Of a stretch of DNA of 64,000 bases, positions 1,203-54,096 are shown piece by piece. The stretch's first letter is position 1; each line of letters opens with the position of its first letter. The notes under the pieces were generated by a model, which worked only from the letters and a program-made list of their open reading frames with translations, ran no database searches and had not been told where the DNA came from. Made by a program: the position numbers and the translations under genes. Where the stretch lies: assembly GCA_014730255.1 (NCBI GenBank), contig WJIQ01000136.1:1-64000 (forward strand), written 5' to 3'. Source of the DNA: a bacterium. Lineage in GTDB: Bacteria; Krumholzibacteriota; Krumholzibacteriia; LZORAL124-64-63.

Positions 1203-4200
1203 CTACTTCACCAGGACGAGCGTCCGGACCGAGGCCCGGCCGTCGGCGATCAGGCGCGCGTAGTACGTGCCCGAGGCCACCTGACGGCCCGCATCGTCCC
1301 GTCCCTGCCAGCGCACCTCGTGCGCGCCGGCTGCACGGTGATCGTCGACCAGCGTGCGCACCAGCCGGCCCTGCACGTCGTACAGCTTGAGCTGCGCGTG
1401 CCCGGCCGCCGGCAGGCTGAACTTCAGCGTGGTCGCCGGGTTGAACGGGTTCGGCGCGGCATGGTCCAGGCCGAACGCGAGCGGCAGATCCTCCGCCGCG
1501 GTCACGTCCTGCACCACGTTCAGCACCACCGGCAGCACCATGGTCGACTGCTCGGCGTCGTTGCTGCTGAGCGTCAGCTCGGCCAGGTACTCCTGGAACG
1601 ACAGCTCGGTCGCGTCGAACATGACCGACACCTCGGCCATCTCGTCCGGGCCGACCGTGCCGGCGAGCGGCGAATAGTCCAGCCACGGCACCAGCGAGCC
1701 GGCGCTGACCAGGATCGCCATGCCGTCCTCGACGTAGTCGCTGTTGTAGACGATCTGCAGGCCGTCGCTGGCGTCGGCGTTCTCGATGCCGATCGTGCAC
1801 TCGTTGCCGTAGGAGAGCGAGTTGTACTGGAAGACGATCACGCCGCTCTCGTACAGCATCACCTGGAAGGTGAACGAACCGTCCGAAAAGTAGTGCGGCA
1901 CGCCGTCCCACTGCACGATGTAGCGCGCGTTCGCCTCGTCGTGATAGCGATAGATGTCGCCGCCCTGGCTCGGGTTCAGGTCGTCCCAGAAGGGTGCGAC
2001 CATCAGATCCGGCGAGCCGGTGCTCGGCATGGGGTCGTTGGTGTACGGATCGGCCGACGTGCTCTCGAAGGTGATGAAGCCGTTGGTGCAGATGCTCACC
2101 TGCGAGTACATGTCGCCGTAGTAGGGAAAGCTGAAGCCCAGGTCGAACGGGCCGTAGGTCGCGTCGTCGTTGTTGCCGACGGTCTGGCCGAGGCCGCTGA
2201 TGTCGAACCAGTCGTACTCCGGGCCGCCGGGCTCGTTGCTGTCGACCCAGACGTAGCCGAACTGATCCGGACCGCCCGCGCCGGTCACCGGCGACTGGCC
2301 CGGACGCGGGTCGTCCTCGCCCTTGCGCAGGTCGATGGGATCGTGCGGGGTGACCGCCTGGCGCGGCACGCCGCCCAGCTCCTCGGCGGCCAGGCGCCAG
2401 GACAGCGGATCGGCACCGAGGTTGGCGACGGTCAGGATCCGGGAGGACTGCTCGCCGGCGAGCAGGGTCTCGTCGAAGGCCATGGGGCTGACCTCGGCGT
2501 GCGCCCCGAGCGGCAGCAGGTAGAGGTCGAGCGTCGTCGGCCCCTGCAGGTCGACCGGCTCGATCACGCGGCCCACCAGCTCGAGCTCGGCCTGCACGTC
2601 GTAGGTCAGGCCCACCGGCAGGTCGATCGAGTAGGCGCCGTCGGCACCGCTGGTCACCGGATCGACCGGCACGTCCAGGGCCTCGACGACCGCGCCGGCG
2701 GCCAGCGAGCCGTCCGGGCGGTACACGCGGCCCGAGAGCGCGACCACCGGCGCCGGGTCGAACTGGAAGGTCTCGACCGCGGTCTCGTCCTCGACGATCT
2801 GGACGGTATAGCTGCCCTCGAGATAGCCGAAGCGCGTCACCACGAGCTCGACCGCGCCCTGCGGCAGGGTCAGGTCGAAGCGCCCGTCGGCGTCGGTCAC
2901 GTCGGACTGGTAGCCGTCGACCACGCTGACCTGCGCGCCCTCGACCGGCTGGCCGGTATCGCTGTCGACGATGGTGCCCTCGAGGTAGCCGATGCCGCTC
3001 ATCACCGCGAGCACGGCGTCATAGGCGTCGAGGAAGCCGTGGCCGTAGGTGTTGTCCTCGCCCACGGTGCCCAGGTCCTGGGCGGTCTCCATGAGCACCT
3101 GCTTGATGGTGATCACGTCGAGGTTGGGGTTGGCCGAGCGCATGAGCGCGACCACGCCGGCCACGTGCGGGCCGGCCATGGAGGTGCCGCTCTTGTAGCC
3201 GTAGCCGCTGCCCGGCACCGCGCTGTAGACGTCGCTGCCCGGAGCGGAGATCTCGGGCTTGACGCGGTTCTCCTCCGGGCCGCAGTTCGGGCCGGCCGGG
3301 CCGCGGCTGGAGAATCCGCTGATGGTGAACGGCGGGGTCGTGATGGTCGAGCCCACCGAGAAGCAGTTGTACAGGGTGGTCGCGCGATCGGCGGGCGAGC
3401 GCAGGCTCGTCGAGCCGGGGCCCTCGTTGCCGGCCGACCAGGTGAGGACCACGCCGGCCGCCTCGCAGGCGTCGATGGCGTCCCACCAGCGGCTGTCGCA
3501 GTCGACGTAGCCGGAGAAGTTCTCGTTCACGCCCCAGGAGTTCTGCACGACGTCGGGCACGTCGTCGGTGGTCAGGGGGTTGCCGTCGGGATCGGCGAAC
3601 CACTGCAGGGAGTTCAGGATGTCGCTGTCGAAGCCGGGGTTCGCCCCCTGGTCGATGGCATTCGAGGCGATCCACTGCGCACCGGGCGCCACGCCGATGG
3701 TGTCGTCGGCGGCGATGCCGCACATGGTGCCCACGGTGTGGGTGCCGTGGCTGTTGAAGTCGTCGGGGAAGGTGCTGCCGCCGTAGACCACGTCCAGCCA
3801 GGCCTCGCTGGCCGGGGCGAACAGCCCGCGCCAGCGGCCGGCCAGAGCCGGGTGGTTACCGTCGACGCCGGTGTCGAGCGAGCCGATCAGGGCGCCGTCG
3901 CCGCGGATGCCGAGCTCGTCCCAGACGCGGCGAGCGTTGATGTTCACCACGCCGGGCGTGATGCCGATGCCGGTGGTCGTCGATGCGTACTCCTCGACCG
4001 GCTTGATCAGCTCGGGCACCATCTCGGGCTCGATGGCCTCGACGTCGTCACGCTGCGCCAGCTCGTAGATCACGTCCTTGGTGGCGACGACGAACACGCC
4101 GTTGACCAGCCAGTAGGACGTGTACCCGAGCACCTGGCCGCTCGCCCGCGGCGATTCGAGGTCGGCCAGCAGGTCGGCCTGCGTCATGCGGGCGCGGTCC

Positions 4201-4439
4201 TGCAGCTCGTTGATCACGCGCGCGTGGCGGACCGGGAGCGTGGCCTTCTGGGTGTGCAGCGACAGATCGAGTGCCTCGACGTCCACGCGATCGCGCATGA
4301 AGACCATCGCGCGGATCGGATCGTCGCCGTCGGCGCGATCGAGCTGATCGGCCAGACCGGGCGCGATCTCCCCGGCGGTCGCGAGGCCGGAGAGGCAGAG
4401 CAGGGCGAGGACCGGCAAGAGGAACTTGCGCAACGACAT
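1203..4439 (-). CDS. secreted subtilisin-like serine peptidase (S8) with carboxypeptidase-regulatory-like beta-sandwich domains and C-terminal FlgD-Ig/T9SS-type sorting domain
   Basis: ORF 1203..4535; start at MSLRKFLLPVLALLCLSGLATA signal peptide; S8 motifs HGTHTVG and GTSMAGPHVAG; C-terminus PNPFNPATTLKFSLPAAGHAQLKLYDVQGRLVRTLVD...GTYYARL...LVLVK. Confidence 0.9.
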   Translation of the reverse strand: MSLRKFLLPVLALLCLSGLATAGEIAPGLADQLDRADGDDPIRAMVFMRDRVDVEALDLSLHTQKATLPVRHARVINELQDRARMTQADLLADLESPRASGQVLGYTSYWLVNGVFVVATKDVIYELAQRDDVEAIEPEMVPELIKPVEEYASTTTGIGITPGVVNINARRVWDELGIRGDGALIGSLDTGVDGNHPALAGRWRGLFAPASEAWLDVVYGGSTFPDDFNSHGTHTVGTMCGIAADDTIGVAPGAQWIASNAIDQGANPGFDSDILNSLQWFADPDGNPLTTDDVPDVVQNSWGVNENFSGYVDCDSRWWDAIDACEAAGVVLTWSAGNEGPGSTSLRSPADRATTLYNCFSVGSTITTPPFTISGFSSRGPAGPNCGPEENRVKPEISAPGSDVYSAVPGSGYGYKSGTSMAGPHVAGVVALMRSANPNLDVITIKQVLMETAQDLGTVGEDNTYGHGFLDAYDAVLAVMSGIGYLEGTIVDSDTGQPVEGAQVSVVDGYQSDVTDADGRFDLTLPQGAVELVVTRFGYLEGSYTVQIVEDETAVETFQFDPAPVVALSGRVYRPDGSLAAGAVVEALDVPVDPVTSGADGAYSIDLPVGLTYDVQAELELVGRVIEPVDLQGPTTLDLYLLPLGAHAEVSPMAFDETLLAGEQSSRILTVANLGADPLSWRLAAEELGGVPRQAVTPHDPIDLRKGEDDPRPGQSPVTGAGGPDQFGYVWVDSNEPGGPEYDWFDISGLGQTVGNNDDATYGPFDLGFSFPYYGDMYSQVSICTNGFITFESTSADPYTNDPMPSTGSPDLMVAPFWDDLNPSQGGDIYRYHDEANARYIVQWDGVPHYFSDGSFTFQVMLYESGVIVFQYNSLSYGNECTIGIENADASDGLQIVYNSDYVEDGMAILVSAGSLVPWLDYSPLAGTVGPDEMAEVSVMFDATELSFQEYLAELTLSSNDAEQSTMVLPVVLNVVQDVTAAEDLPLAFGLDHAAPNPFNPATTLKFSLPAAGHAQLKLYDVQGRLVRTLVDDHRAAGAHEVRWQGRDDAGRQVASGTYYARLIADGRASVRTLVLVK

Positions 4440-4598
4440 GATCGAATTCCCTTCTGCAGTGTGGTTGGCGGCAGGACGGCCGAGCCGGCGGGACCCCCGG
4501 GCCGCCGCCGGCAATGTTTTCGCATCGAGTCTCATTTTATCACAGATGAACGTATCCGCCCAGCGATTCTGTCGAACAATCAGGAACAGGAGCCATTA

Positions 4599-6593
4599 TC
4601 AACGCACGAGCGCCAGGCGCGCCGTCCGCCGCTCGCCGGCGATCTCGAGCACCGCGAGGTAGACGCCGGCCGCGGCCTCGCGCCCCGCGCGGTTCCGGCC
4701 GTCCCAGCCGACCGTCCGCTCGCCCGCCGGGATCTCCCGGTCCAGCAGCGACCGCACCAGCCGCCCACGCGCGTCGTAGAGCACGAGGCGGGCATGCCCG
4801 GCGGTCGGGCTGCTCAGGTGCAGCGTGGTGCGCGGATTGAAGGGGTTGGGCCGGGCCGCGAGCGTGAGCGCGGGGCTGGCCGGCGGCGTGGCGGTCAGCT
4901 GGTCGAGGTAGGCGTTGCACAGGATCCAGTCCTGCGGATCGAACTGGCAGATGCCCACCCCGGGCGGACCGGTCAGGACGTAGTGCTGCACGCGCCGGTC
5001 GTTCTCGACGACGACCTCCTCGAAACCGAGGGCGTGGTGCAGGCGCAGCCGGATCGGCATCTCGAAGACGGGCTCGTCCTGGGTCTGCTCGATGCGGACG
5101 TGGATGGTGGACCGCTCCGGACCGCTGGCGACCTCGTAGCCGAACAGGTACTCCGGATGCCCCGACCCGTAGATCCACTGCTGGAAGAAGGTCGCCAGGT
5201 CGCGTCCGGAGACGTCCTCCATGGCCGCCTGCAGGTCCTCGGTCGTGGCCGTCCCGTAGGCGAACCGCTCGCGGTAGAGCGCCAGTCCGGCGAAGAAGTC
5301 CTCGTCGCCCAGCACCCCGCGCAGCATGTGCACGACCCAGCTCGCCTTGTCGTAGCTCAGGTCCAGATCGAAGATCGAGCCGAAATCGTCGGGGTCCTCG
5401 ACGTAGATCGTGCCGCCGCCGAGGTACTCGTTTTCGAGCATCTCCTCGCGGTAGGCCGCGAACCCCTCGGTCTGCTCGCGCCAGTAGGCCTCCGACCAGG
5501 TCGCGAACCCCTCGTTCAGCCAGATGTGATGGAAATCGGCGCAGGTCACCAGGTCGCCCCACCACTGGTGGGCGAGCTCGTGGGCGATCAGCCCCTCGCC
5601 GTGGAAGTAGTAGATCATGCTCGAGCAGGTCTGGTGCTCCATGCCCCCGCCCCAGGTGAAGTGCGCGTGGCCGTACTTCTCCGCCAGGAACGGATACTCG
5701 CCGAACGCCCCGCGGAAGACGGTGATCATCTCGGGCACGCGGCCGTAGCCCTCGCGCGCCTCCTCCTCGTAGTCCGGGACGACGTGGTTCTCGACCGGCA
5801 TCGTGGTGCCGTCGAGCGCGGTGTAGGTGTCGGTGAACACGCTGTAGGGGTAGGCGGTGATCGAGACGAGGTACGTGGCGATGGGATAACGCGAGCGCCA
5901 GTGGTAGGTGGCGCGGCCGCCGTCGCGGTTCTCGGCGGCGAGCACGCCGTTGCTGGCGACCACGTACGGCTCGTCGATGGTCACGCGCACGTCCACCGAG
6001 TCGGCCTTGTCGACGTTGAGGTCCTTGCACGGCCACCACGTGCGCGCGCCGTAGGGTTCGCTCAGCGACCAGACGAGCTTCCGGCCGTCGGCCCACGACC
6101 AGCCGAACGCGTTGCCGGCCCCGGACGGATCGCCGTGGTAATCGACGGCCACGGTGACCGTCTCGCCGGGCTCGTAGAGGCGGTCGAGGTCGATGGTCAG
6201 GCGATCGTCCGCGTGAGTGAAGGTCACGGGAGCGGCGTCGACGCGGACCGCGTCGGTGGTCAGCAGCGAGGTCAGGTCGAGCACCAGGGTATCGGTCGCC
6301 TCGTCCACGACGATCGCCGTGGTCTCGACCGTCCCGTCGAGCGTCTCGCCGGCGACGTCGACGTCGAGGTCCAGGTCGTAGTGCGTCACGTCGAAGAGCA
6401 GCTGCACCGGGTCGGGATCGCCGACCGCCCTGTCCGCGGCCTGCCGCTCGAGCGCGGCGATGCGACGCTCGGCCTCCCACTGGCGCCACGGGTGCGGTCC
6501 CTCGGGCACCTCCCCCGGCCGGGGCTGGAGCGGCGGGCCGGCGAGGGTGGTCGCGGCCATGGTCAGCAGCACGAGGCCGAGGAACGAGCGCAT
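4599..6593 (-). CDS. secreted M1-family aminopeptidase (gluzincin) with C-terminal FlgD-Ig/T9SS-type sorting domain
   Basis: ORF 4599..6695; start at MRSFLGLVLLTMAATTLA signal peptide; GAMEH and HELAHQWWG-x18-NEGFA zinc-binding motifs; C-terminus RPNPFNPRTTLHLSSPTAGHARLVLYDARGRLVRSLLD...ALVR. Confidence 0.9.
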   Translation of the reverse strand: MRSFLGLVLLTMAATTLAGPPLQPRPGEVPEGPHPWRQWEAERRIAALERQAADRAVGDPDPVQLLFDVTHYDLDLDVDVAGETLDGTVETTAIVVDEATDTLVLDLTSLLTTDAVRVDAAPVTFTHADDRLTIDLDRLYEPGETVTVAVDYHGDPSGAGNAFGWSWADGRKLVWSLSEPYGARTWWPCKDLNVDKADSVDVRVTIDEPYVVASNGVLAAENRDGGRATYHWRSRYPIATYLVSITAYPYSVFTDTYTALDGTTMPVENHVVPDYEEEAREGYGRVPEMITVFRGAFGEYPFLAEKYGHAHFTWGGGMEHQTCSSMIYYFHGEGLIAHELAHQWWGDLVTCADFHHIWLNEGFATWSEAYWREQTEGFAAYREEMLENEYLGGGTIYVEDPDDFGSIFDLDLSYDKASWVVHMLRGVLGDEDFFAGLALYRERFAYGTATTEDLQAAMEDVSGRDLATFFQQWIYGSGHPEYLFGYEVASGPERSTIHVRIEQTQDEPVFEMPIRLRLHHALGFEEVVVENDRRVQHYVLTGPPGVGICQFDPQDWILCNAYLDQLTATPPASPALTLAARPNPFNPRTTLHLSSPTAGHARLVLYDARGRLVRSLLDREIPAGERTVGWDGRNRAGREAAAGVYLAVLEIAGERRTARLALVR

Positions 6594-7564: not shown

Positions 7565-7569
7565 GACTT

Positions 7570-11320: not shown

Positions 11321-14300
11321 TCAGGCCCGGGGCGACTGCTGGACCGGGTGGGTGGCCGCCGGCTGCCGCAGGTCCTCGCCGTCGTCGGCGTGCTGGCGGA
11401 GGTCCTCGATGTGCCGCCGGCGCTTCTCGGCCTCCTCGAGGAAGATGCCCGTCAGGCGGGGGCAGTACCGGGTGCCGGCGAAGGCCTGGATCTCGGCCAG
11501 CGCGTCGTTGAGCGGCACGGCCGGGCGCCAGGGCCGCCGCTGCAGCAGCGCCCGCAGGCTGTCCGTCAGGGCGATCAGGCGCGAGCCGAGGGGGATCGCC
11601 TCGCCCGCCAGGCCCTCCGGGTAGCCGCTGCCGTCGTAGTTCTCGTGATGGTGCAGGATGATCTCGCGCACCTTCGGCGGCGGCTTGATGGGCGCCAGCG
11701 TCACCAGGCTCGCCTGGACGTGGCGCTCGAGCTGGATGCGCTCGGCGTCGGTCAGGGCGTCGGGCTTGTTCAGGAGATGCGGCGGGACCGTGGAGAGCCC
11801 GACGTCGTAGTAGCGCAGCGCGAACGCGAGATGCCGCAGGTCGGCCCCGGGCAGGCCCAGCCGGCGGGCGCTCGCCAGGCAGATCTCGTGGCAGACGCTG
11901 GCCACGTCGGTGCGCGGCAGGATACCGACGCGCGTGGTCGCCCGCAGCGACGACTGGATGGCCGCGAAGTCGCGCAGGGAGCTCTCCTGGCTCTCGTAGC
12001 GCTGCAGCAGGTGCACCAGGCGGGGCGCCATCGACTCGAGCAGCAGGCGGTCGTCCGGCCCGAACGACTGCCCGTCGTGCCGGTCGCGGACCGCCACCAC
12101 GCCGACCACCTCGCCCTCGAACGGCAGCGGCACGCAGAGCACCGGCCCACCCCCGGAGAGCAGCACATCGCCGCTCTCGGGCGTCTCGAGGCGGGTCTCA
12201 CCGTCGGCCCAGGTCCGGCCGGCGAGGCCGACCCCGCGACCGAGCCGCAGGTCCTGCAGCTGCCCGGCCGGCAGCCCGGCGGCGGCGACCACCTCGAGAT
12301 GCTCCCGCGGCTGGTCGACGCGCATGAGCACCGCCGCGTGCACGCCCAGGTTCTCGCTCACCCAGTGCAGCAGGCGCTGCAGCGACAGTCGGGGATCGTG
12401 GAACACGGGGCTGATGGACGCCGGCGCCGATGGCAGCACCACGTGCGGGCGCCGCGGCAGGATTACCGTCAGCCTCGCCCCGCCGCCGGGCATGTTCTCG
12501 GCCCAGATGCGGCCGTCGTGCCAGCTGGTGATGTCGCGGCAGATGCTCAGGCCGACCCCCTGGCCGCCGACCTCCCGGGTGCTCGACCCGTCGACCTGGT
12601 AGAACTGCTCGAAGATGGTGTGGAGCTTGTCCTCGGGGATGCCGATGCCGGTGTCCTGCACCTCGATGCGGACGGCGGTGCCCTGCTCGAAGATGCGTGC
12701 CGACACCGCGCCGCCGGGGGGCGTGAACTTGAACGCGTTGTCCAGGAGGTGCTCGAGGAGCTGCTGGCAGAGCACCGGATCGGCCTCCAGCGACATCCGG
12801 GACGCCGGGCAATCGAGCTGGAAGTCGAGATCGCGCTGCTCGGCCTTCTGGCGCCAATCCTCGGCCAGCCGGCGCGTGAGCGCGGCGAGGTCGCACTCGG
12901 CCCGGTCGACCCGCGCCGACTGATCCTCCATGCGCTCGAGATCGAGCAGGTTCTCGATGATCTCGCGGAACTGCTGGCCCTGTTCGTGGATCACCGCGAG
13001 GAACTCGCCACGGACGTCGGGCGACATGCTCTCGCCCCGGTCGCGCAGCATCTCGCTGTAGCCGATGATCGAGGTCAGCGGGGTGCGCAGCTCGTGGCTC
13101 ACGTTGGCGATGAAGTTGCTGCGCAGGTCGCCCAGCGATTGCAGCCGGTCGTTGGCCACGGCCAGCTCGTCGCGGCAGGCGGCGAGCCGCTCGCGGACCT
13201 CGTTGCCCTCGAGCACGGCGGCGAGCTGGCGGGCCAGCAGCTCGACGTAGCGGATGTGCAGCAGGTCGGGGCCGCTGTCCTCGCCCGGCTCGCTCAGCTT
13301 GAAGAACCCGTGCAGCGCTCCGGCGGGATCGGTGATCGGCACGATCAGGTGCTGGCCGGGCGGCCACTGCCCGTCGTCCGCCGCCGCGCCGGCCGGTTGC
13401 GCGGACACCGGCGGCACCAGGTAGCTGTTGGAGACCCGGAACCGCGGATGGACCATCTGCTCGTAGGTCGCGCGATCGAGCGTCGCCTGCGCGCCGGTTC
13501 CCGGGACCTCGAACTCGCCGTCGATGGCGGTCGCACGGGCGACGAAGGCGTCACGCGTGTCGGTCCAGTGATAGAGGTCGGCGCGGCGGAACGAGAAGAG
13601 GGTCCCGACGAGCTCGACCGCGCCGCGCATCAGGTCCTGACGTCCCCGCAGGCTCTGCAGCTCGACCGCGCTGGCCACCAGGTGCTCGAGCAGGCGCGCG
13701 CGCCGGCTCGCGCCCTGCGTGATCTCGAGGGCCTGCTCGCCCCGCAGGCGCGCCTGGGCCAGGTCTTCCTGGGCGACGCCGAGATCGGCGCGCAGGACGT
13801 CCCGCTCGGCCGTGAGCGTGGCCGTGCGCTCGGCGGCCTGGTCGCGCTCGCCGATCAGTCCGCGCATGAGTTCGTGGACGAGCAAGACCACCAGCAGCAC
13901 GTGCAGGAGCAGGTGGCACGCCGCCGCCGGCAGGTTCCGTGCGAGCAGGGGCCGCGTGAACTCGCCGCCGATCAAGCCGAGGAACACCGCCGCCGCCGCG
14001 GGCGCGGCCAGCAGCACGAGCGCGGTGCGCCGCCGCGTGTTGGCGGCGAGGATGCCCGCGGCCGCCACGAGCAGCTGCGCGAGAAGCGTCAGGTCGAGCA
14101 GGGAGAAGGCCGCCGACAGGAGCGGCCGCGGCTCGACCTGCCAGCCCTCGACGAACACCCGCAGCAGGGCCGTCGGCGCCAGCACCAGGCCGGCGAAGCG
14201 GATCTGCCGCCAGGCCTCGCCGCGGTCCTCGCGGCGGGCGACGTGCCCGAGCACGGCCATCAACGCCCCGCAGACCCCGATCGCCGCCAGGTAGACCGTC

Positions 14301-14368
14301 GCCAGCCGCCAGTCCAGGAGCGGCAACTCGGCGAAGGTGAAGACCGGCATGCTGGCGATCAGGTCCAT
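11321..14368 (-). CDS. membrane sensor histidine kinase fused to GAF and C-terminal HD-GYP domain (HD motif replaced by YD)
   Basis: In-frame start MDLIASMPVFTF within ORF 11321..14932 (upstream part overlaps the REC gene in another frame); about 5 TM, coiled coil, GAF, HisKA SNFIANVSHELRTPLTS, HATPase DTGIGIP...GQGVGLSI, second GAF, HD-GYP block HHHENYDGSGYPEGL with LRYYDVG in place of LLHDIGK. Confidence 0.8.
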   Translation of the reverse strand: MDLIASMPVFTFAELPLLDWRLATVYLAAIGVCGALMAVLGHVARREDRGEAWRQIRFAGLVLAPTALLRVFVEGWQVEPRPLLSAAFSLLDLTLLAQLLVAAAGILAANTRRRTALVLLAAPAAAAVFLGLIGGEFTRPLLARNLPAAACHLLLHVLLVVLLVHELMRGLIGERDQAAERTATLTAERDVLRADLGVAQEDLAQARLRGEQALEITQGASRRARLLEHLVASAVELQSLRGRQDLMRGAVELVGTLFSFRRADLYHWTDTRDAFVARATAIDGEFEVPGTGAQATLDRATYEQMVHPRFRVSNSYLVPPVSAQPAGAAADDGQWPPGQHLIVPITDPAGALHGFFKLSEPGEDSGPDLLHIRYVELLARQLAAVLEGNEVRERLAACRDELAVANDRLQSLGDLRSNFIANVSHELRTPLTSIIGYSEMLRDRGESMSPDVRGEFLAVIHEQGQQFREIIENLLDLERMEDQSARVDRAECDLAALTRRLAEDWRQKAEQRDLDFQLDCPASRMSLEADPVLCQQLLEHLLDNAFKFTPPGGAVSARIFEQGTAVRIEVQDTGIGIPEDKLHTIFEQFYQVDGSSTREVGGQGVGLSICRDITSWHDGRIWAENMPGGGARLTVILPRRPHVVLPSAPASISPVFHDPRLSLQRLLHWVSENLGVHAAVLMRVDQPREHLEVVAAAGLPAGQLQDLRLGRGVGLAGRTWADGETRLETPESGDVLLSGGGPVLCVPLPFEGEVVGVVAVRDRHDGQSFGPDDRLLLESMAPRLVHLLQRYESQESSLRDFAAIQSSLRATTRVGILPRTDVASVCHEICLASARRLGLPGADLRHLAFALRYYDVGLSTVPPHLLNKPDALTDAERIQLERHVQASLVTLAPIKPPPKVREIILHHHENYDGSGYPEGLAGEAIPLGSRLIALTDSLRALLQRRPWRPAVPLNDALAEIQAFAGTRYCPRLTGIFLEEAEKRRRHIEDLRQHADDGEDLRQPAATHPVQQSPRA

Positions 14369-14373
14369 CGGTC

Positions 14374-14757: not shown

Positions 14758-14763
14758 GTCCCG

Positions 14764-17157: not shown

Positions 17158-17170
17158 GGTGTCGCGTCCC

Positions 17171-18160: not shown

Positions 18161-18355
18161 CGTCACCGCCCCGTCCCGGAGTGCATAATGGCATGCATCG
18201 ACCGCTCTCGGCGGCCTGAGGCGGAGCCACGCAAGTGGCGTGCCATCACCGGGTACGGGCGGTCGCTCCAGCACCTTCCGTGCCACGGCGGGTGGTCGCG
18301 GGCGACCACGAAGCCGTCCGCGGGACCGCGATCAACGTCCGGGAATCCCGGGAGA

Positions 18356-43192: not shown

Positions 43193-43199
43193 GATCCTC

Positions 43200-45367: not shown

Positions 45368-48300
45368 ATGAAGAACGTCGTCCTCGTCTGCCTCGCCGCG
45401 CTGCTGACCCTCGCGTCGGCCGCCTCGGCGCTCGAATTCGAAAACTCCAGCGTGGTCGGACACGTGCAGGACCGCGTCCTCGTGGTCCTCGAACCCGGCC
45501 TGAAGCTGGCCGTCGACAAGGCGTCCGGGACTCCCGAGACCGGCCGCGCCGATCTCGATGCCCTGAGCGCGCGGTACGACGCGGTCGACATCAGTCCCCT
45601 GTACGGCAACATGGCCGCGATGTTCGACAAGGCGTCCACGCGCGTGGAGATGGAGCGGTGGTACGCGGTCGACTTCGCCCGCGACGTCGACCTCGAGCAG
45701 GTGATCGTCGACTACGGCAAGCTGGCCGGCGTGACCGAGGTGCGCGCCATCGAGATCTGCAAGAACTACGGGACGGCCTACTTCCCCGACGACCTGACCA
45801 ACCAGTGGTACCTGCGCAACCCGTCGCTCGGCGGCGGCGACGTGCGCGCCCTCGGCGGCTGGGCCGAGGCGGCCGGCGACAGCAACGTGATCATCGCCGT
45901 GGCCGACTCGGGCGTCGACTGGAATCACCCCGATCTCGGCGGACCGCACCCCGATCGCGTCAACGGCGCGATCTGGACCAACTGGGACGAGTACTACGGC
46001 ACCCCGGGCGTCGACGACGACGCCAACGGGTACATCGACGACATCCGCGGCTGGGACTGGGTGACCGGCGTCAACGGCGAGGGCGATCAGGACGATCAGA
46101 TCCCGGACAACGATCCCAGCGACTTCGAGAGCCACGGCACCAACTGCGCCGGCACCATCTCCCCGCTGACCGACAACGGGATCGGCGTGGCGGCGACCGC
46201 GCGCGGCTGCAAGATGATGGCCCTGCGCATCGGCTACCTGCCCGCGGGCGCGGACATCGGCGTCGTGCGCATGGACTGGGCCTCGCAGGCGTTCTTCTAT
46301 GCCGCGGCCAACGGCGCGAAGATCTTCAATGCCTCCTGGGGCAGCTCGAGCCTCCTGAGCTTCGGCGTGCGCGAGTTCCTCGACTCCGGCGGTCTGATCT
46401 TCACCGCCGCGGGCAACGACGACAGCCAGGACGCCTCCTACCTGAACGGCTACCCGGACGGCACCGGCTCGGAGACGCGGATCCTCGGCGTCGCTGCCAC
46501 CGGGACCGGCGACGGCAAGGCCAGCTTCTCCAATTACGGCGAGTGGGTCGACCTCTGCGCCCCCGGCACCAACATCTACACCACCGCCTACTCGAGCAAC
46601 ACCGGCGAGAGCACGTACTCGGCGGTCCAGGGCACGAGCTTCGCCTCGCCGCTGGCCGCCGGCTGCGCGGCGCTCATCTGGTCGGCCAACCCCGGTCTCA
46701 CGGCGGCCCAGGTCTCGCAGACCCTGCGCTTCAGCTGCGACGACATCGACGACGTGAACCCCGCCTACGCGGGTCTCCTGGGCCACGGCCGCATCAACCT
46801 GACCCGCGCCCTCGGCGACAGCGAGCAGCTGGTGCCGCAGGAGTACGCCGACATCCGTGACGCCATGAGCTGCGCCTCGCCCGGCGACATGATCAAGGTG
46901 CTCGGCTCGGCCACCCTGCCCAACATCACGATCATCGGTCGCGAGCTCGAGGTCAGCGGCGGCTGGGACGCGAGCTACACCACCCGTGACGTCGAGAACA
47001 ACCCGACGGTCATCGACGCCAACGCCGCCGGCCCCGCGCTCGAGTTCTTCGGCGACGTGACGGCCTCGACGGTGGTCGACGGCTTCGCGCTCGAGGGCGG
47101 TGGCGGCCGCACCTTCAGCGACATCCCCTACCCCGGCCGGTACGGCGGTGGCGTGCTCGTCTCGGGCCAGTCGCCGACCTTGCGCAACCTGACCATCACC
47201 GGCGCGGCGGTCGGCTCGTCCAGCCAGCTCGGCTGCGGCGGCGGCATCATGCTGCACGACAGCGAGTCGGTGCTCGAGGACATCACGATCACCGGCAACA
47301 CGGCGACGCTCGGCGCCGGCGTGTTCGTCTACCAGGGCAGCCCGGCCCTGACCCGCGTCGTGATCGATGCCAACACCCTGATCACCGACGACTTCGCCAA
47401 CGAGGCGCTCGGCGGTGGCCTGCACGTCCTCGACGCGGACGTGACGCTGACCGACGTGACGGTCACCAACCATCTCGACGCCATTCGCGGTGGCGGCATC
47501 TACGCGGCCCAGATCACCGACCCCGCGTCGGTGACCATGACCGGTGGCGAGGTCAGCGGCAACACGGCGAAGTCCAGCGGCGGTGGCGTCTATGCCGCCG
47601 GCGCCGGTCTGCTCGACCTGACCGACGTCGCGATCGCGGGCAACGGCCCCGGCACCGGGGCGACGTTCATGTCCGGCGGCGGCGTCTACGTCACTGGCCC
47701 GACCGTGGTCATGAGCGGCGTCTCCATCCAGGACAACACCGCCCAGGCCGGCGGCGGCATGCAGCTCGACCAGAGCCCCGCCATCGACCTGTCGGCCACG
47801 CTCCTGACCGGCAACGAGTCGCTGATCTTCGGCGGCACCATCTACCTGACGAGCAACGCGGGCGCGACGATGACCAACCTCACCATCGCCGACAACGCGA
47901 GCACGGGCGGCGGTGCGGGCATCAACTCCAGCGGGACGCCCCTGGACGTCGCCAACACCATCGTGGCCTTCAACACCGGCGGGACGACCATCGCCAACGG
48001 CATCAACATCACCGGTGCGTCGGCGATCCTCGCCTGCAACGACGTCTTCGGCAACGATGGCGCCGACTACGGCGGCGTCGACGATCCCACCGGCACCGAC
48101 GGCAACATCTCGGTCGACCCGCTGTTCTGCGACGTGGCCGAGGGCGACTACCGCGTGGCCGAGGACGGCCCCTGCGCCCCCGACCAGAGCGGTGGCTGCG
48201 GCCTGATCGGCGCCCTGGAGGCCGCTTGCGGCACCAGCACGCCGGTCGAGGATCCGCAGGTGCCGGCCGCGTTCGCCGTCGAGCCCAACTTCCCCAACCC

Positions 48301-48544
48301 GTTCAATCCGGTCACCACGATCCGCTTCGCCATCCCGACCGCCGCCCGCACCACCGTCACGGTGTTCGACGTGCGCGGCCGCGTGGTGAAGACCCTCGTG
48401 GACGCCGAGCTGCCCGCCGCCACCCACGCGATCCAGTGGCGCGGCCAGGACGATCGCGGACGCGCGGCCTCCGCCGGCATCTACTTCTACAAGGTGACCA
48501 GCGGCGAGCACACCGCGGTCGGGCGCATGGCGCTCATCAAGTAG
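45368..48544 (+). CDS. secreted S8 subtilisin-like peptidase with right-handed beta-helix region and C-terminal FlgD-Ig/T9SS-type sorting domain
   Basis: Start MKNVVLVCLAALLTLASAASA (GGAGG RBS); catalytic VADSGVD / HGTNCAG / GTSFASPLAAG; long G/T/N-rich parallel-beta-helix-like repeats; C-terminus FPNPFNPVTTIRFAIP...VFDVRGRVVKTLVD...GIYFYKV...MALIK. Confidence 0.9.
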   Translation: MKNVVLVCLAALLTLASAASALEFENSSVVGHVQDRVLVVLEPGLKLAVDKASGTPETGRADLDALSARYDAVDISPLYGNMAAMFDKASTRVEMERWYAVDFARDVDLEQVIVDYGKLAGVTEVRAIEICKNYGTAYFPDDLTNQWYLRNPSLGGGDVRALGGWAEAAGDSNVIIAVADSGVDWNHPDLGGPHPDRVNGAIWTNWDEYYGTPGVDDDANGYIDDIRGWDWVTGVNGEGDQDDQIPDNDPSDFESHGTNCAGTISPLTDNGIGVAATARGCKMMALRIGYLPAGADIGVVRMDWASQAFFYAAANGAKIFNASWGSSSLLSFGVREFLDSGGLIFTAAGNDDSQDASYLNGYPDGTGSETRILGVAATGTGDGKASFSNYGEWVDLCAPGTNIYTTAYSSNTGESTYSAVQGTSFASPLAAGCAALIWSANPGLTAAQVSQTLRFSCDDIDDVNPAYAGLLGHGRINLTRALGDSEQLVPQEYADIRDAMSCASPGDMIKVLGSATLPNITIIGRELEVSGGWDASYTTRDVENNPTVIDANAAGPALEFFGDVTASTVVDGFALEGGGGRTFSDIPYPGRYGGGVLVSGQSPTLRNLTITGAAVGSSSQLGCGGGIMLHDSESVLEDITITGNTATLGAGVFVYQGSPALTRVVIDANTLITDDFANEALGGGLHVLDADVTLTDVTVTNHLDAIRGGGIYAAQITDPASVTMTGGEVSGNTAKSSGGGVYAAGAGLLDLTDVAIAGNGPGTGATFMSGGGVYVTGPTVVMSGVSIQDNTAQAGGGMQLDQSPAIDLSATLLTGNESLIFGGTIYLTSNAGATMTNLTIADNASTGGGAGINSSGTPLDVANTIVAFNTGGTTIANGINITGASAILACNDVFGNDGADYGGVDDPTGTDGNISVDPLFCDVAEGDYRVAEDGPCAPDQSGGCGLIGALEAACGTSTPVEDPQVPAAFAVEPNFPNPFNPVTTIRFAIPTAARTTVTVFDVRGRVVKTLVDAELPAATHAIQWRGQDDRGRAASAGIYFYKVTSGEHTAVGRMALIK

Positions 48545-48728: not shown

Positions 48729-50072
48729 ATGCCGACCCACCGACCTTCGCGATCCGCCCGTCCACTCGCCCGCCGTGCCGCGCTCGCCGTGAGCTGCCTC
48801 GCGCTGGCCGTCCTCGGCGCGTCGGCCGGCGCGGACACGATCGAGACCATCAGCTTCGAGAGCCGTTCGCTGGACGAGGTACGCTGGATCCAGGTGGTCC
48901 TGCCGGACGGCTACGATCCAGAGCGACCCGGCGGCTACCCGGTCTACTACTTCCTGCACGGCGCGGGGTCGGATCACACGTCCTACGGCATCGTGCGGGA
49001 CGTCCTGAACGGCGAGATCGCGACCGGTCACGTGGAGCCGGCCATCCTGGTCAAGCCGGACGACAGCGGCTGCCCCTGGGGGCAGTTCACCGGGTGCAAC
49101 TGGACCAACTCGCCGGACCTGCAGGGAATGCACGAGGACTATGTCGTCGAGGACGTGATCACCGAGATCGAGAGCCGCTACCACACCGCGCCGGGTGCCG
49201 CCGGCCGGGTGATCCTGGGCCACTCGATGGGCGGCTTCGGGGCGATGCACATCGCCCTGCGCCATCCGGACGTCTTCGCCGGCGTGGCCTCGCACAGCGG
49301 CTACCTGTCCTTCGCCGGGCTCGCGGAGCTGCACGTGCCCCGCATCATCGCCGAGCACGGCGGTAGCGGCCCCTGGCAGTGGACGCCGGACGCGGGGATG
49401 ATCAGCGCGCTGTGGTTCCTGATGGCCGGGGCCTTCTCGCCCGATCCGAATGCGTCCCCGTTGCCGGTCGATTTCCCGCTCTCGCCGGCCGGGACCGTCC
49501 GCCCCTTCGTCTTCGCGCGCTGGTTCGATCACGATCCGGTCACCCTGGCGCAGGCCCTCTCGCCGCAGGATGCACCGGCGATCTACTTCGATTGCGGAAC
49601 CAGCGACGAGTTCGATTTCCACCCGCTGAACGAGGCCTTCGCGGTGGCCCTGGACGACCGGGAGATCCCCCACACCTGGCGATCCTTCGACGGCGCCCAC
49701 GGCGACCGGCTGGCGGAGCGCCTGGTGACGTCGCTACGGTTCCTGGACACGGCCATGCTCCACGAGGCGGTCGCCAGTCCGGAGCCCGTGGCTCCATCGA
49801 CGCTCACCCTCCAGGCGGCGCCGAGCCCGTTCAATCCGCGGACGACCATCCGGTTCGAGATGCCCGTCGCCGGACATGCCGGGATCGTCGTCTACGATCT
49901 GCGGGGTTCGCCGGTCGAGGTCCTCGTGGATGACGTGATGCCGCCGGGACCACACGCGGTGGACTGGGACGGCACCGACACGAACGGACGTGCGGTTCCG
50001 TCGGGGCACTACCTCGTGCGGCTCGAGACCGCGGACGGGATGGCCATGAGGAAGGTGGCCCTGATCCGCTGA
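48729..50072 (+). CDS. secreted esterase (putative esterase / enterochelin-esterase-like alpha/beta hydrolase) with C-terminal FlgD-Ig/T9SS-type sorting domain
   Basis: Start MPTHRPSRSARPLARRAALAVSCLALAVLGASAGA; GHSMGG nucleophile elbow; C-terminus APSPFNPRTTIRFEMPVAGHAGIVVYDLRGSPVEVLVD...HYLVRL...VALIR. Confidence 0.8.
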   Translation: MPTHRPSRSARPLARRAALAVSCLALAVLGASAGADTIETISFESRSLDEVRWIQVVLPDGYDPERPGGYPVYYFLHGAGSDHTSYGIVRDVLNGEIATGHVEPAILVKPDDSGCPWGQFTGCNWTNSPDLQGMHEDYVVEDVITEIESRYHTAPGAAGRVILGHSMGGFGAMHIALRHPDVFAGVASHSGYLSFAGLAELHVPRIIAEHGGSGPWQWTPDAGMISALWFLMAGAFSPDPNASPLPVDFPLSPAGTVRPFVFARWFDHDPVTLAQALSPQDAPAIYFDCGTSDEFDFHPLNEAFAVALDDREIPHTWRSFDGAHGDRLAERLVTSLRFLDTAMLHEAVASPEPVAPSTLTLQAAPSPFNPRTTIRFEMPVAGHAGIVVYDLRGSPVEVLVDDVMPPGPHAVDWDGTDTNGRAVPSGHYLVRLETADGMAMRKVALIR

Positions 50073-50103
50073 CGCGGTCCGCCGGTCGGCCAGGGCCCGC
50101 CGG

Positions 50104-53100
50104 TCACTTGACGAGGGTCATCCGCCCCATCTCCACGACGCCCCCCGCCACCAGCCGGTAGACGTACGTCCCCGACGGCAGCGAGCGCCCGCGCCCGTCG
50201 ACCCCGTCGAAGGCGACGCGGTGATGGCCCGCGTCCAGCGCTCCGTCGACCAGCGTGCGCACGAGCCGTCCGCGCACGTCATGGACGGTCAGGCGAGCGT
50301 GACCGGCGCGCGGCAGGCTGAAGGCCAGCGTCGTGCGCGGGTTGAACGGGTTCGGCGACGCCGCGGCCAGCGTGACCACCCCGGGCACGTCCGCCTCGCT
50401 CGCGGTGTCGACCAGCAGGCTGACCGGCACCACCACGGGCGCGCCGCCACTGGAGTAGACCACGATCTCGGCGGTGTAGGTGCCCGTCCCGAGCCCGGTC
50501 GCATCGAACGCGACCGTGACCTCGCTGGTCTCGCCGGCCGGCGTCTGGCCGGCCTCCAAGGCGAGGTCCAGCCACCCGATGTCGGCCTGGATCGTGAACG
50601 CGCCGTCGCTGACGTCGCTCACCAGCACGTCCTGGGCGTCGACCACCCGGACGCGGCACTGATCGCTGGCCGGCCCGGTGACCTCCCAGGCGAAGCTGCC
50701 GAGCGCGGCGTCGAGGTCGCTGGCCACCGTCTGCCAGCCGTCGCCGCGGTCGAGCTGCAGATCGATCCCGGTCACGCCGCCGTCAGCCGTCCAGAGGAAG
50801 GTGCGCGGCTCGCCGATGGACCAGACCTCGCCACCATTGGGTGCGACCACGGTGACGGTGCGATCGCGGTCGAGGCCGCCATCGGCCGACTTGCCCGGGC
50901 GGGATTCGCGCACCGCGAGCTGCCAGTGCAGTTCGGAGCCCGCCGCGCCCGTGCTGCTGATCGCGAGCACGCGCTCGGTCGACGCGCCCGGTGCGACCGT
51001 CACCGCCAGGCTGCCCGGCGAGACGTCGAGGCTCGCGGCCGCTGCCGGCGGCGTCGGCACGAAGGCGATCGCCCGGCCCGCCGTCAGCGTGCGCGCCCCA
51101 CTGGCGTAGCGGTTGTAGTAGGTGTAGGTCAGACCGTCCTGACCGTCCTGGATGCCGACCGTGGCGTAGCCGCGGGTGTAGTCGTTGTTGGCGACCTGGT
51201 CGTACTGGTAGACGATCAGGCCGTCGCCCGTCGCGGTCTGGTGCACGGCGGGATCGTGCAGGATCAGCTGGCAGTTCTGCTGGCCGTTGTGCCGGTTACG
51301 CATGCGGCTCCACTGCACGACGTACACGCCGTCCTCGACGTCGTGATGATGATAGACGCGGCCGCTGCCGTACTGCCACAGATCGTCCCAGAACACGGCC
51401 AGCAGCACGTCCGGCGAGCCGGCCGCCGGCAGGGCCCAGTTGCGCCAGTGCACGAGGTAGGTGTGCCCGAGCGAGACCCAGCCGTTGGAGCAGATCGAGA
51501 TGCGGTCGTAGTCGCGGCCGCGGTAGCGGAAGGTGAACGGCAGGTCCACCGTGCGCGTGTCGTCCTCCTCGTAGGCATAGTCGTCGAGGCCGACGCTGGT
51601 CCCCGGTCCACCGTGGGAGGGGTCGATCTCGCGCCAGGCGTAGACCGGCGCGTCGGGCGAGGGGTCCTGGTCGTCCCAGGCCAGGTAGCCCATGGTGCCC
51701 GGACCGAGGGGGCTGTCGTCGTTCGCGCCGGCGGTGGTCAGGCTCAGCTCCAGGACCTGCCGGGTGCCGTTCGCCGTGGTGACGGTCACGGTGCAGGCGG
51801 CGAGGTGGCCGCCCCACGCGGCCTCGGCCACGGCCAGGGGCCACGATGCCGAGGCGAGCGCGCCCGGCGCCACGTCGCCGAGATCGACCGTCACCGGCCC
51901 GGCCGGCAGCAGGAACGGGCTGGTGCTCGCGAACTCGGCCACCGCGCCGACCGCGCCGCTCGAGCCGTCGTTGCGCAGCTGCACCGCGAGATCGACCGTC
52001 TGTCCGGCCTGACCCGACCAGGCGCTCGAGACGAGCCGGAACGCCGGCGCCGCGATGGGCAGGCGCGCCTGCGAGGTCCACGCGCCGTCGCCCCCCTGGG
52101 CGATCACGTCGAGACGGACGTCGCGGCCGTCGGGCAGGTCGCCCGGCAGGGTCAGCGTCCAGGCCGCCGCGGTCACGGTCGCGCCGGGGCCGATGGTCCC
52201 GACCGCGACGGGCGCGCCGGCGACCGCGACACCGTCGGTGCGCGCAGCGACGTCCACGGTCACCCCGGCCACCGCCGTCTCGCCCAGGTTGGTGATCTGC
52301 AGCGAGAGCTCGCCGCTCTCGCCCGGGTCGGGCATGCCGTCCTGGCCGTCGCTCCAGAGCCAACCGCTCGCCGTGCAGTAGGCATCGACCGCGCCGACCT
52401 GCAGCTCGCCGCGGTGAGGCATGAGGTCATCGCCGGTCACGGTGATCGCCAGCGGACCGGGCGCGAGGTCGGTCGGTACGGACAGGCGGACCTGACCGGC
52501 CTGGTCGGTCCAGCCGGTCGTCTGCACCATGCCCTCGCGCCACACGGTGACCCGGGTGTCCGCGAGGGGCGATCCGCTCCGGCGGACGCTCACCGGCACC
52601 GTGTCCGCACCGGGCGGCAGCAGGGCCGGATAGTCGACGCTCGGCGCGACGGGCAGGGCCTGGCGCATCTCCGTCGCCGGATCGCCCATCAGGTTGTTCC
52701 AGGTCGACCAGATGGCGACGATGTCCGGCTCCGGCTCCTGGTACTGGCGGTACAGCTCGATCTTGCCGCGCGTGTGGGCATAGCCGAGGGTGCGGTCCGG
52801 CTCGTTCAGCGCACCCTCCCAGGCGCCGTGGAAGTAGCAGTTGTTGTAGCGCGTGTGCGTGCCGATGGTCGCGGTGCCGACCGCTCCGATGGCGCCGCCG
52901 TCCGGGTTGCGCAGCATGGCCTCGCTGTAGGTGTGCGGGCTCTCGAAGCTGCCCGAGGCGCAGGTGGGCATGATGGCGAACGGCAGCTCGCCCTGGTTGC
53001 TCAGGTTGTCGATGTACGTGGTGCTGAAGCCGCTGCAGCCGAGGTAGCCGCGGTAGGCGTAGACCGAGGCGCCGGCGTTCAGCTTCTCGAAGATCCGGCT

Positions 53101-54096
53101 CGCGAACGGTGCGCTCCAGATGGTGTCGACCTGGGTGTACGCGAGATCGAGCAGCTGCTGCTTGAGCCACTGGTTGACGTAGATCGTGGTGTCGCCGGAC
53201 GACGAGGGATCGCCGACGAGCACCCCGCGCGTGAACCAGCCGGGGTCGCCGAACGTGTCGGGCGCACGCTCGTAGCCGAGGATCTTGGCCACGATGCCCT
53301 CCAGCTCGCCGATCGAGCGGGCGCTGAGGCGTCCGATGTGCACGTCCGAGAGCACGTCGTCGCCGTCGAGCCGGGTGTACTCGTGGTCGCCCTCGCCGTA
53401 GTAGCCGGAGATGGACTCGCGCCAGGTGGCCACGCTCACCCCGCCGGTGGCGTCACCGACGAGGACGACGTGCGCGAGCGGCGCCTCGGCCGTGTCGTAG
53501 ACCTGCTGGATGTGGCTCTTGATCTGCGTGTTGGTGCCGCCGATCGCGGCCGTGGAGACCACCTCGACGGCGTAGCCCTGCCGGCGGCGCCACTCGGCCA
53601 GGGGCGCGATCGCCTCCTGCGTGCCCGCGGCCGAGGAGCAGATCATCAGGTACGTGCCGGGAACCTCGTCGTACTCCGCGCGGACGGCCGCGCCGCCGAG
53701 GGCCACGCTCGCGAGCATGTTGCCGAACGAGCGGGCGATGGTCGTCCGCGCCGGCGGCGCGGTGGCGGCCGGCGTGAAGGCCAGGTCGACCGTGCGCGCG
53801 GCGGGGCCATCACCATCGATGGTGACCGGCGCGACCTGCATCCCGTGCATGATCGCGGGCTCGCCCAGGGCGACGCCCGATGCCTCGCCGGCCAGATGCG
53901 CGGACATGCCCGGCGGGATCGCGACCAGCCCCTGCCACGAGGCGCCGTCTCCGGGCATGGTGACGTCGAGGCGCACGCCGACGTCGGTCCCGGTGGCCAC
54001 CGCCGGTTGCGGCGCCCGCGCGAGCGAGGTCACGGGGACGGTGGCGAGAACGGCGAGCAGGGTGGCGAGGAGCGGGAGCGGGGCACGGCGGCGCAT
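50104..54096 (-). CDS. secreted gingipain-like cysteine peptidase (C25 family) with Ig-like domains and C-terminal FlgD-Ig/T9SS-type sorting domain
   Basis: Start MRRRAPLPLLATLLAVLATVPVTSLA (AGGAGG RBS) within ORF 50104..54177; C25 catalytic region HVVLVGDATGGVS...YRGYLGCSGF...MPTCASGSFESPH; C-terminus SPNPFNPRTTLAFSLPRAGHARLTVHDVRGRLVRTLVD...GTYVYRL...MTLVK. Confidence 0.85.
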   Translation of the reverse strand: MRRRAPLPLLATLLAVLATVPVTSLARAPQPAVATGTDVGVRLDVTMPGDGASWQGLVAIPPGMSAHLAGEASGVALGEPAIMHGMQVAPVTIDGDGPAARTVDLAFTPAATAPPARTTIARSFGNMLASVALGGAAVRAEYDEVPGTYLMICSSAAGTQEAIAPLAEWRRRQGYAVEVVSTAAIGGTNTQIKSHIQQVYDTAEAPLAHVVLVGDATGGVSVATWRESISGYYGEGDHEYTRLDGDDVLSDVHIGRLSARSIGELEGIVAKILGYERAPDTFGDPGWFTRGVLVGDPSSSGDTTIYVNQWLKQQLLDLAYTQVDTIWSAPFASRIFEKLNAGASVYAYRGYLGCSGFSTTYIDNLSNQGELPFAIMPTCASGSFESPHTYSEAMLRNPDGGAIGAVGTATIGTHTRYNNCYFHGAWEGALNEPDRTLGYAHTRGKIELYRQYQEPEPDIVAIWSTWNNLMGDPATEMRQALPVAPSVDYPALLPPGADTVPVSVRRSGSPLADTRVTVWREGMVQTTGWTDQAGQVRLSVPTDLAPGPLAITVTGDDLMPHRGELQVGAVDAYCTASGWLWSDGQDGMPDPGESGELSLQITNLGETAVAGVTVDVAARTDGVAVAGAPVAVGTIGPGATVTAAAWTLTLPGDLPDGRDVRLDVIAQGGDGAWTSQARLPIAAPAFRLVSSAWSGQAGQTVDLAVQLRNDGSSGAVGAVAEFASTSPFLLPAGPVTVDLGDVAPGALASASWPLAVAEAAWGGHLAACTVTVTTANGTRQVLELSLTTAGANDDSPLGPGTMGYLAWDDQDPSPDAPVYAWREIDPSHGGPGTSVGLDDYAYEEDDTRTVDLPFTFRYRGRDYDRISICSNGWVSLGHTYLVHWRNWALPAAGSPDVLLAVFWDDLWQYGSGRVYHHHDVEDGVYVVQWSRMRNRHNGQQNCQLILHDPAVHQTATGDGLIVYQYDQVANNDYTRGYATVGIQDGQDGLTYTYYNRYASGARTLTAGRAIAFVPTPPAAAASLDVSPGSLAVTVAPGASTERVLAISSTGAAGSELHWQLAVRESRPGKSADGGLDRDRTVTVVAPNGGEVWSIGEPRTFLWTADGGVTGIDLQLDRGDGWQTVASDLDAALGSFAWEVTGPASDQCRVRVVDAQDVLVSDVSDGAFTIQADIGWLDLALEAGQTPAGETSEVTVAFDATGLGTGTYTAEIVVYSSGGAPVVVPVSLLVDTASEADVPGVVTLAAASPNPFNPRTTLAFSLPRAGHARLTVHDVRGRLVRTLVDGALDAGHHRVAFDGVDGRGRSLPSGTYVYRLVAGGVVEMGRMTLVK

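Follow-up and report, generated by a model that had tools for sequence, protein, structure and literature searches.

Five predicted secreted hydrolases encoded in a 64,000-nucleotide stretch of DNA from an uncultured Krumholzibacteria-like bacterium (assembly GCA_014730255.1, contig WJIQ01000136.1; this whole stretch is referred to below as the window) end in one and the same C-terminal domain (CTD), or tail, of about 83 amino acids (aa). These are two S8 subtilases (S8a and S8b), an M1 aminopeptidase, a C25 (gingipain-family) cysteine peptidase and an esterase. We consider that this tail is probably a sorting domain of the type A family used by type IX secretion systems (T9SS), belonging to a longer subtype that resembles the immunoglobulin-like (Ig) domain of FlgD. 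It would send Sec-exported, periplasmically folded hydrolases across the outer membrane, and would then be removed, leaving the enzyme anchored at the surface or released. The evidence for this comes from the identity of the domain, its fold, its strictly terminal position and terminal motif, the signal-peptide-like N-termini of the proteins that bear it, and a taxonomic range that includes cultured bacteria with a T9SS.

A six-frame scan of the 64 kb for the motif NPFNP or PF.P.T found exactly five sites, one in each of the named genes and each 81–82 codons upstream of the stop codon, and in all five genes the tail occupies the extreme C-terminus. An earlier reading of this DNA, made by a model from the sequence alone, had assigned a common C-terminal domain to these same five open reading frames (ORFs); all five translations do end in the domain, and the window held no sixth site. 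The consensus given in that sequence-only reading describes the overall pattern of the domain, but the real tails are looser than it was written: S8b reads AARTT where the consensus gives AGHA, PSPFNP and RGSPV stand in the esterase, and S8a reads QGRLV. The count of five tailed genes in about 50 likewise stands for the tailed genes, whilst the gene total is nearer 47–48. At ~71% G+C long spurious ORFs are common in the window, so genes were located by third-position G+C (GC3), and this total comes from that calling.

Alignment of the five tails gave 20 invariant columns, a protein identity to the S8a CTD of 38–55%, and a mean DNA column identity of 73%. These values rule out a recent duplication or an assembly repeat as the origin of the copies, which are therefore old, diverged paralogous modules. 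As judged from these sequences, the tail appears to be a mobile module of ancient origin that has become joined to catalytic domains of unrelated kinds, and not the product of recent duplication.

To place the tail among known families, its copies were scored against FlgD_ig (PF13860, gathering score 27 bits), two T9SS type A sorting-domain models (TIGR04183, cut-off 23; PF18962, gathering score 27), the PorU and PorU2 models (NF033707, cut-off 420; NF052324, cut-off 450) and full-length FlgD (NF005176, cut-off 230). The sequence-only reading had proposed the PF13860 and TIGR04183 checks. All five tails scored above the gathering score for FlgD_ig (Table 1). For TIGR04183 the outcome was mixed, with S8b and S8a passing whilst C25, M1 and the esterase fell slightly below the cut-off, at 16–19 bits. 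One of the two outcomes that the earlier reading had named as fatal to itself, tails that match neither T9SS nor FlgD-Ig profiles, is not what these scores show. Three of the five tails also align with the CTD portion of the PorU model, and about half of the listed close homologues have a precomputed PF18962 match. When a profile of the five tails was run against PDB sequences, the FlgD Ig domain came first (7eh9, E=1e-7), with the CTD of PorU (6za2, E=0.02) next and then CTDs of gingipains (5hfs, E=0.11). NCBI gives homologues of the tail, Krumholzibacteria ones included, one of two names: "FlgD immunoglobulin-like domain containing protein" and "T9SS type A sorting domain-containing protein".

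Two other identities were tried and rejected. The proteins are not full-length flagellar hook-cap FlgD, as NF005176 gave only 21–31 bits, in the Ig part alone, and the passenger domains are hydrolases. A PEP-CTERM, LPXTG or myxosortase-type signal was also rejected: the tail is a predicted folded beta-sandwich with no transmembrane helix, and the sole match of this kind was weak and internal.

An AlphaFold2 model of the S8a tail was built with 58 homologous tails, and its confidence is very high (pLDDT 95.7, pTM 0.86). It predicts an all-beta sandwich with six long strands and short N-terminal bridges. Foldseek comparison of this model with the PDB recovered solved T9SS CTDs, with the highest score for PorU (6za2, TMq 0.73), followed by PorZ (5m11, 0.68), mirolase (8qb1, 0.61) and the CTD of NucA within the SprA translocon complex (8glk_D, 0.56). 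FlgD (3osv) was also matched, as were Fn3-like domains of C5a peptidase and Vpr. The predicted tail is roughly as close to FlgD as it is to the CTDs of PorU, PorZ, mirolase and NucA, and in both sequence and modelled fold it sits between the FlgD_ig and type A CTD families.

We then looked at the position of the tail in other genomes. The pattern P[NS]PFNP[RAV]TT was scanned over 185,579 species genomes, giving at least 600 stretches (595 confirmed); the related-locus results given here rest on the best 80 loci of these, with ~20 kb around each and 1.1 Mb in all, whose six-frame ORFs were scanned with a hidden Markov model built from the tail. Of 149 tail copies in these loci, 146 stop no further than five residues from the stop codon, and for another two the distance is at most ~11 aa; counting the five of the window, 151 of 154 copies end at the terminus. 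Two to four tailed genes lie within 20 kb in 46 of the 80 loci, and the density of extra copies (0.62 per 10 kb, vs. 0.78 per 10 kb in the window) shows that the window is typical for these lineages.

The end of the tail is also conserved. Among the 151 terminal copies, 143 bear the PNPF motif, and in 122 of these it lies 83–84 residues from the C-terminus. The consensus of the 151 is T-[RK]-K-M-V-L-[LV]-K-COOH, with K or R at position -6 in 135 and as the last residue in 140. In the window, four tails have R, R, K and R at -6, whilst in S8a this position is T and the R stands at -7; all five tails finish in K or R. Type A CTDs have a near-invariant, functionally important lysine close to the C-terminus (PMC10994853) and an essential C-terminal motif, "motif C-t." (PMC11285876); the terminal basic pattern of the tail resembles this lysine motif at the level of sequence.

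The lineages represented among the best 80 loci are Krumholzibacteriota, Eisenbacteria, Latescibacterota, KSB1, Zixibacteria, Gemmatimonadetes, Fibrobacteraceae, Ignavibacteriales, Calditrichia, Cloacimonadota, Fidelibacterota/Marinimicrobia and Bacteroidota/Cytophagia. This is an assemblage of the Fibrobacteres–Chlorobi–Bacteroidetes (FCB) type; the NCBI taxonomy leaves Krumholzibacteriota unplaced under Bacteria. One tailed locus is labelled Gammaproteobacteria. Several loci labelled "uncultured Fibrobacteraceae" (L007, L008, L031 and others) have 63–71% G+C and a Krumholzibacteria-like gene content, and one of them (L007) mirrors locus L015, so the taxonomic labels of these binned metagenome-assembled genomes (MAGs) may be unreliable. 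Cultured carriers were sought by tblastn of the tail against plasmids, which found tails of the same subtype at the C-terminus in Rhodothermus marinus and Salinibacter ruber, and homologous tails in Hymenobacter, Adhaeribacter and Runella. A T9SS is borne by the Rhodothermaceae and the Cytophagia (PMC11611037), and reviews list other FCB phyla for T9SS as well, including the experimentally studied Fibrobacter succinogenes (PMC11285876). The R. marinus tail (plasmid pRHOM17201, WP_155816011.1) is 36% identical over its full length without gaps, has the WDG...G insert and ends in KKIVLVK-COOH. The S. ruber tail (pSR61, WP_148278312.1) belongs to a protein annotated as "T9SS type A sorting domain-containing protein". 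These Rhodothermota tails differ from those of the window in their first strand, PNPV or PNPI instead of PNPFNP.TT, and in their passengers, which are propeller and Ig proteins.

The tail shares several features with known type A CTDs (TIGR04183/PF18962), such as those of Porphyromonas gingivalis RgpB, PorU and PorZ, Tannerella forsythia mirolase, and Flavobacterium johnsoniae NucA and RemZ. Both lie at the extreme C-terminus, and both are borne by mostly hydrolytic, Sec-exported proteins, for which export in the present case would follow from the N-termini. Both have an Ig-like beta-sandwich, of about seven strands by the model. They also have in common the YD..GR.V strand-loop, the G.Y strand, and a basic residue followed by hydrophobics and a final K or R (PMC11285876, PMC10994853). 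In contrast to type A CTDs of ~65–75 aa, the tail of ~83 aa is ~10–15 residues longer than gingipain CTDs (RgpB CTD; PMC11285876), and it owes this extra length to a FlgD-like hairpin, H.V.WDG.D..G, between the GR.V and G.Y strands. Its host also differs from the known hosts of type A CTDs in being a Krumholzibacteria-like bacterium, in which the tail is tied to T9SS by homology. The FlgD Ig domain (PF13860) is the best sequence and profile match and has a similar fold. Unlike FlgD, the window proteins have neither the FlgD N-terminal part nor the Tudor-like part and lie outside any flagellar context; the domain is instead terminal on predicted secreted hydrolases, with an added PNPFNP strand at its N-terminus and an LVK-COOH strand at its C-terminus.

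The N-terminal signal peptides claimed in the sequence-only reading were borne out at the proposed starts, where each of the five proteins opens with a basic n-region and then a strongly hydrophobic h-region (Kyte-Doolittle 11-mer values of 2.4–3.0, a heuristic measure). Catalytic motifs are intact in the four proteins checked: D/H/S in both S8 subtilases, GGMEH, HELAH and NEGF in M1, and GHSMGG in the esterase. The C25 domain matches PF01364 over its full length (191.9 bits, profile positions 1–374 of 374), and orthologs of this protein carry the NCBI name "C25 family cysteine peptidase". The C25 protein itself is deposited as MBD3220725.1 ("hypothetical protein GF314_05745 [bacterium]", encoded on a 77.9 kb contig), which is 100% identical apart from the start codon. 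The deposited model (1357 aa) begins at a GTG that lies 27 codons upstream of the ATG in front of the signal peptide (54096–54177). That upstream start would bury the signal peptide; the start at 54096 is more plausible and the deposited start is probably too long.

S8a and C25 have more in common than the tail. A NIDO-like module of ~250 aa is found in both (S8a aa ~720–985, ~1485–2280, minus strand; C25 aa ~800–1240, ~50380–51700, minus strand), with a PF06119 match in S8a and 28% identity over 450 aa, and both have an Ig-like domain directly before the tail. The two peptidases thus appear to have exchanged a larger C-terminal cassette by shuffling.

On the reading of the tail as a T9SS type A-family sorting domain, a Sec signal peptide would first export each hydrolase to the periplasm. 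The protein would fold there, and its seven-stranded beta-sandwich tail would be recognized, as homology to known CTDs suggests, by an outer-membrane translocon of the SprA/Sov-PorV type. A PorU-type sortase would then cleave the tail and attach the enzyme to a surface glycolipid, or the enzyme would be released. Through the five genes the Krumholzibacteria-like host would have four peptidases and one esterase acting outside the cytoplasm, with which to feed on polymers. The sequence-only reading had taken the five proteins for cargo with a FlgD-Ig/T9SS-type CTD, and the profiles, the predicted fold compared with solved CTDs, the terminal position, the basic end, the spread through the FCB group and the NCBI names of homologues all support it.

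Several observations weigh against this reading. Three of the five tails fall under the TIGR04183 cut-off, and none passes PF18962, for which S8b alone was listed (24.6 bits). The closest PDB relatives by sequence are Ig domains of a flagellar protein. A HMMER scan of 1.84 billion cluster representatives put the tail family at 458,705 proteins at E<=1e-3 (313,757 at E<=1e-10), and in its top-scoring members, which are very large proteins, the FlgD-Ig core is repeated internally in 5–23 tandem copies. Of 963 internal core copies, 119 have a PNPF(T/S)P strand before them, and only 27 of 150 repeat proteins (P0241–P0390) have their last domain at the C-terminus. As the core and the PNPF strand both occur in internal repeats, neither the fold nor PNPF is diagnostic of sorting or secretion.

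On a rival view, the tail is a passive structural or binding FlgD_ig module, serving for instance in substrate or cell-wall binding or in stabilization, which has no part in outer-membrane targeting, with export by another route such as a type II secretion system or vesicles. In its favor, no profile other than FlgD_ig is above threshold in all five tails, the Fn3-like domains of C5a peptidase and Vpr are among the structural matches, and no terminal signal is possible where the core is an internal repeat. We nevertheless find this view unlikely. A passive module has no need to end at the stop codon in almost every related gene, to keep a fixed length of 83–84 aa, or to conserve an [RK]-K-M-V-L-[LV]-K-COOH end. 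Nor would it need to be always the last domain, fused to unrelated catalytic domains, or to carry the terminal basic residue of type A CTDs, and where cultured bacteria with a T9SS have homologues of it, the annotation calls these T9SS signals.

The search for T9SS machinery was also negative. Pfam and NCBIfam models found no SprA/Sov, PorV, PorU, PorK/L/M/N or PorP among the ~47 window genes. Of 19 neighbor ORFs in related loci of Krumholzibacteria and Eisenbacteria none was PorV, PorU or SprA; ten of them (~360–425 aa) were pentapeptide-repeat, radical-SAM, glycosyltransferase, transposase and similar proteins outside the T9SS core. The 1.1 Mb of related loci held no ORF of SprA size without a CTD, and four C25 homologues there scored 72 bits or less, vs. 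the PorU cut-off of 420. A literature search linking Krumholzibacteriota, or FlgD_ig tails, to T9SS gave nothing specific, and most reviews describe T9SS as specific to Bacteroidota. As the machinery was searched for only in the window and the related loci, the secretion route in this organism rests on homology.

These absences could mean that the tail is a true sorting signal which Krumholzibacteriota read with non-canonical machinery, be it a translocon in reduced or divergent form or some outer-membrane pathway of unrelated origin. We hold this to be very unlikely. The view taken here spans ~64 kb of this genome and ~20 kb per related locus, within which absence says little, and the same subtype occurs in Rhodothermota, Cytophagia, Ignavibacteriales and Fibrobacteraceae, where T9SS is established or reported (PMC11285876, PMC11611037). 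A broader form of the idea strikes us as quite unlikely: a large arsenal of hydrolases bearing the FlgD-Ig-type tail would leave the cell through a translocon in which some or all of the canonical T9SS core parts are missing, in Krumholzibacteriota and perhaps also in further FCB candidate phyla outside Bacteroidota. If true, the tail family would pre-date, or be independent of, the T9SS of Bacteroidota, and the conserved neighboring C25 peptidase could be the enzyme that processes the tail.

That the C25 protein is not cargo at all, but the PorU-like sortase of this lineage which removes the tails of neighboring cargo, is highly improbable: PorU is itself a C25-fold peptidase with a CTD, the protein matches both PorU models and its gene lies beside CTD cargo genes in a conserved cluster, but its scores of 63.4 bits (NF033707) and 29.3 bits (NF052324) led us to reject it as a PorU equivalog, its match to the gingipain-type Pfam C25 domain runs end to end, relatives hold many paralogues per genome with a gingipain propeptide (PF08126), and it has its NIDO-like and Ig modules in common with an S8 cargo protein.

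Table 1. Tailed hydrolase genes of the window, their C-terminal domains, and the gene module beside the C25 gene. Architectures are from Pfam and NCBIfam; the TIGR04183 cut-off is 23 bits.
Feature	Coordinates	Strand	Description
S8 subtilase (S8a)	1203..4439	-	1078 aa: signal peptide, Peptidase_S8, 2x CarboxypepD_reg, NIDO-like module, Ig-like domain, CTD
M1 aminopeptidase	4599..6593	-	664 aa: signal peptide, M1_N, M1 catalytic domain (HELAH...NEGF), CTD
S8 subtilase (S8b)	45368..48544	+	1058 aa: signal peptide, S8_N propeptide, S8, right-handed beta-helix, CTD
Esterase	48729..50072	+	447 aa: signal peptide, PF00756 esterase with GHSMGG nucleophile, CTD
C25 (gingipain-family) cysteine peptidase	50104..54096	-	1330 aa: signal peptide, full-length C25, Ig-like domains, NIDO-like module, CTD
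CTD of S8a	1206..1454	-	aa 996-1078; FlgD_ig 42.1 bits; TIGR04183 24.3 bits (above cut-off)
CTD of M1	4602..4850	-	aa 582-664; FlgD_ig 34.0 bits; TIGR04183 17.9 bits (below cut-off)
CTD of S8b	48290..48541	+	aa 975-1058; FlgD_ig 33.4 bits; TIGR04183 32.7 bits (above cut-off); PF18962 24.6 bits
CTD of esterase	49833..50069	+	aa 369-447; FlgD_ig 27.8 bits; TIGR04183 16.1 bits (below cut-off)
CTD of C25	50107..50358	-	aa 1247-1330; FlgD_ig 34.9 bits; TIGR04183 19.3 bits (below cut-off)
CHAT-TPR protein	54236-57142	-	adjoins C25 gene
ECF-type sigma-70 factor	57151-57879	+	module beside C25
Anti-sigma-like TPR protein	57872-58627	+	overlaps sigma-factor gene
Secreted protein, no family match	58641-59366	+	module beside C25

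The closest named relatives of the C25 protein are in MAGs of Candidatus Krumholzibacteriia/Krumholzibacteria, with 56–64% identity. Four related loci (L081–L084, which carry P0124 and P0136) have the gene order sigma-70, anti-sigma-like, secreted DUF protein, CHAT-TPR, tailed C25, tailed S8, QTMAN_N glycosyltransferase and hydrolase_4, with a HAD gene between the last two in the P0124 loci only. A further locus (L014, Ca. Krumholzibacteriia ABC2.80) retains the pair of tailed M1 and tailed S8 genes, its S8 tail being 84% identical to the S8a CTD. These clusters resemble the window in the tailed M1 and S8 pair (L014) and in the conserved order from sigma-70 to glycosyltransferase. They differ from it in lacking the esterase-CTD gene, and the C25 orthologs are 56–64% identical. 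In L081–L084 the S8b ortholog adjoins the C25 gene, the two being direct convergent neighbors; the esterase-CTD gene stands between them in the window only, is absent at the syntenic position in the relatives, and is a lineage-specific insertion of another tailed cargo gene. The module of CHAT-TPR, sigma, anti-sigma-like and secreted-protein genes (54236–59366) has the same order in these relatives, and it may regulate the adjacent peptidase genes.

The other genes of the window include housekeeping genes (icd, ilvC, tilS, ftsH, folP, cdaA, tsaD, queF, queG and a fabK-like gene) as well as a MacB/HlyD ABC exporter, histidine kinase and HD-GYP proteins, the CHAT-TPR protein, the extracytoplasmic function (ECF)-type sigma factor, an Nnr/YjeF-like protein and several unknowns. 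Three are queuosine-related: the QTMAN_N-type glycosyltransferase (43982–~45150, minus strand), a homologue of tRNA-queuosine mannosyltransferase that was identified through the syntenic gene in L081 and L083, QueF (59452–59880, plus strand) and QueG (61643–62767, minus strand). An AmmeMemoRadiSam radical SAM enzyme (60633–61646) is adjacent. At 11321–18286 and 36200–38230, both on the minus strand, histidine kinase, GAF or STAS domains are fused to HD-GYP-type HD_5 domains, and there is also a response regulator-GGDEF protein; the density of such signalling proteins suggests an elaborate cyclic-di-GMP network. A small secreted protein (19650–20309, plus strand) with the signal peptide MKTLTALWTTLLLVAVATTATGAG consists almost entirely of R/D/E-rich repeats (RDDRRDRRDD...) and has no family match.

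The tail family is already known and curated (PF13860, TIGR04183, PF18962) and is huge, and the proteins and their Pfam matches are already in public databases. It ranks among the largest sorting-domain families known, at ~459,000 representatives, which makes the finding an ordinary one, though real. That T9SS-type signals are abundant well beyond Bacteroidota could already be gathered from the annotation at NCBI and Pfam and from recent reviews; our result adds an example, not a concept. What is new here is the annotation of these five proteins, and one more case of T9SS-type cargo clustering in a candidate phylum. On sequence grounds, five proteins of an uncultured Krumholzibacteria-like bacterium can now be annotated as probable outer-membrane-exported enzymes, four peptidases and one esterase, of which at least one, the C25 peptidase, had been deposited merely as a "hypothetical protein". 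In this lineage the tail can serve, at little cost, to mark the secretome across whole genomes, and the five tailed enzymes suggest a protein-degrading, surface-feeding lifestyle.

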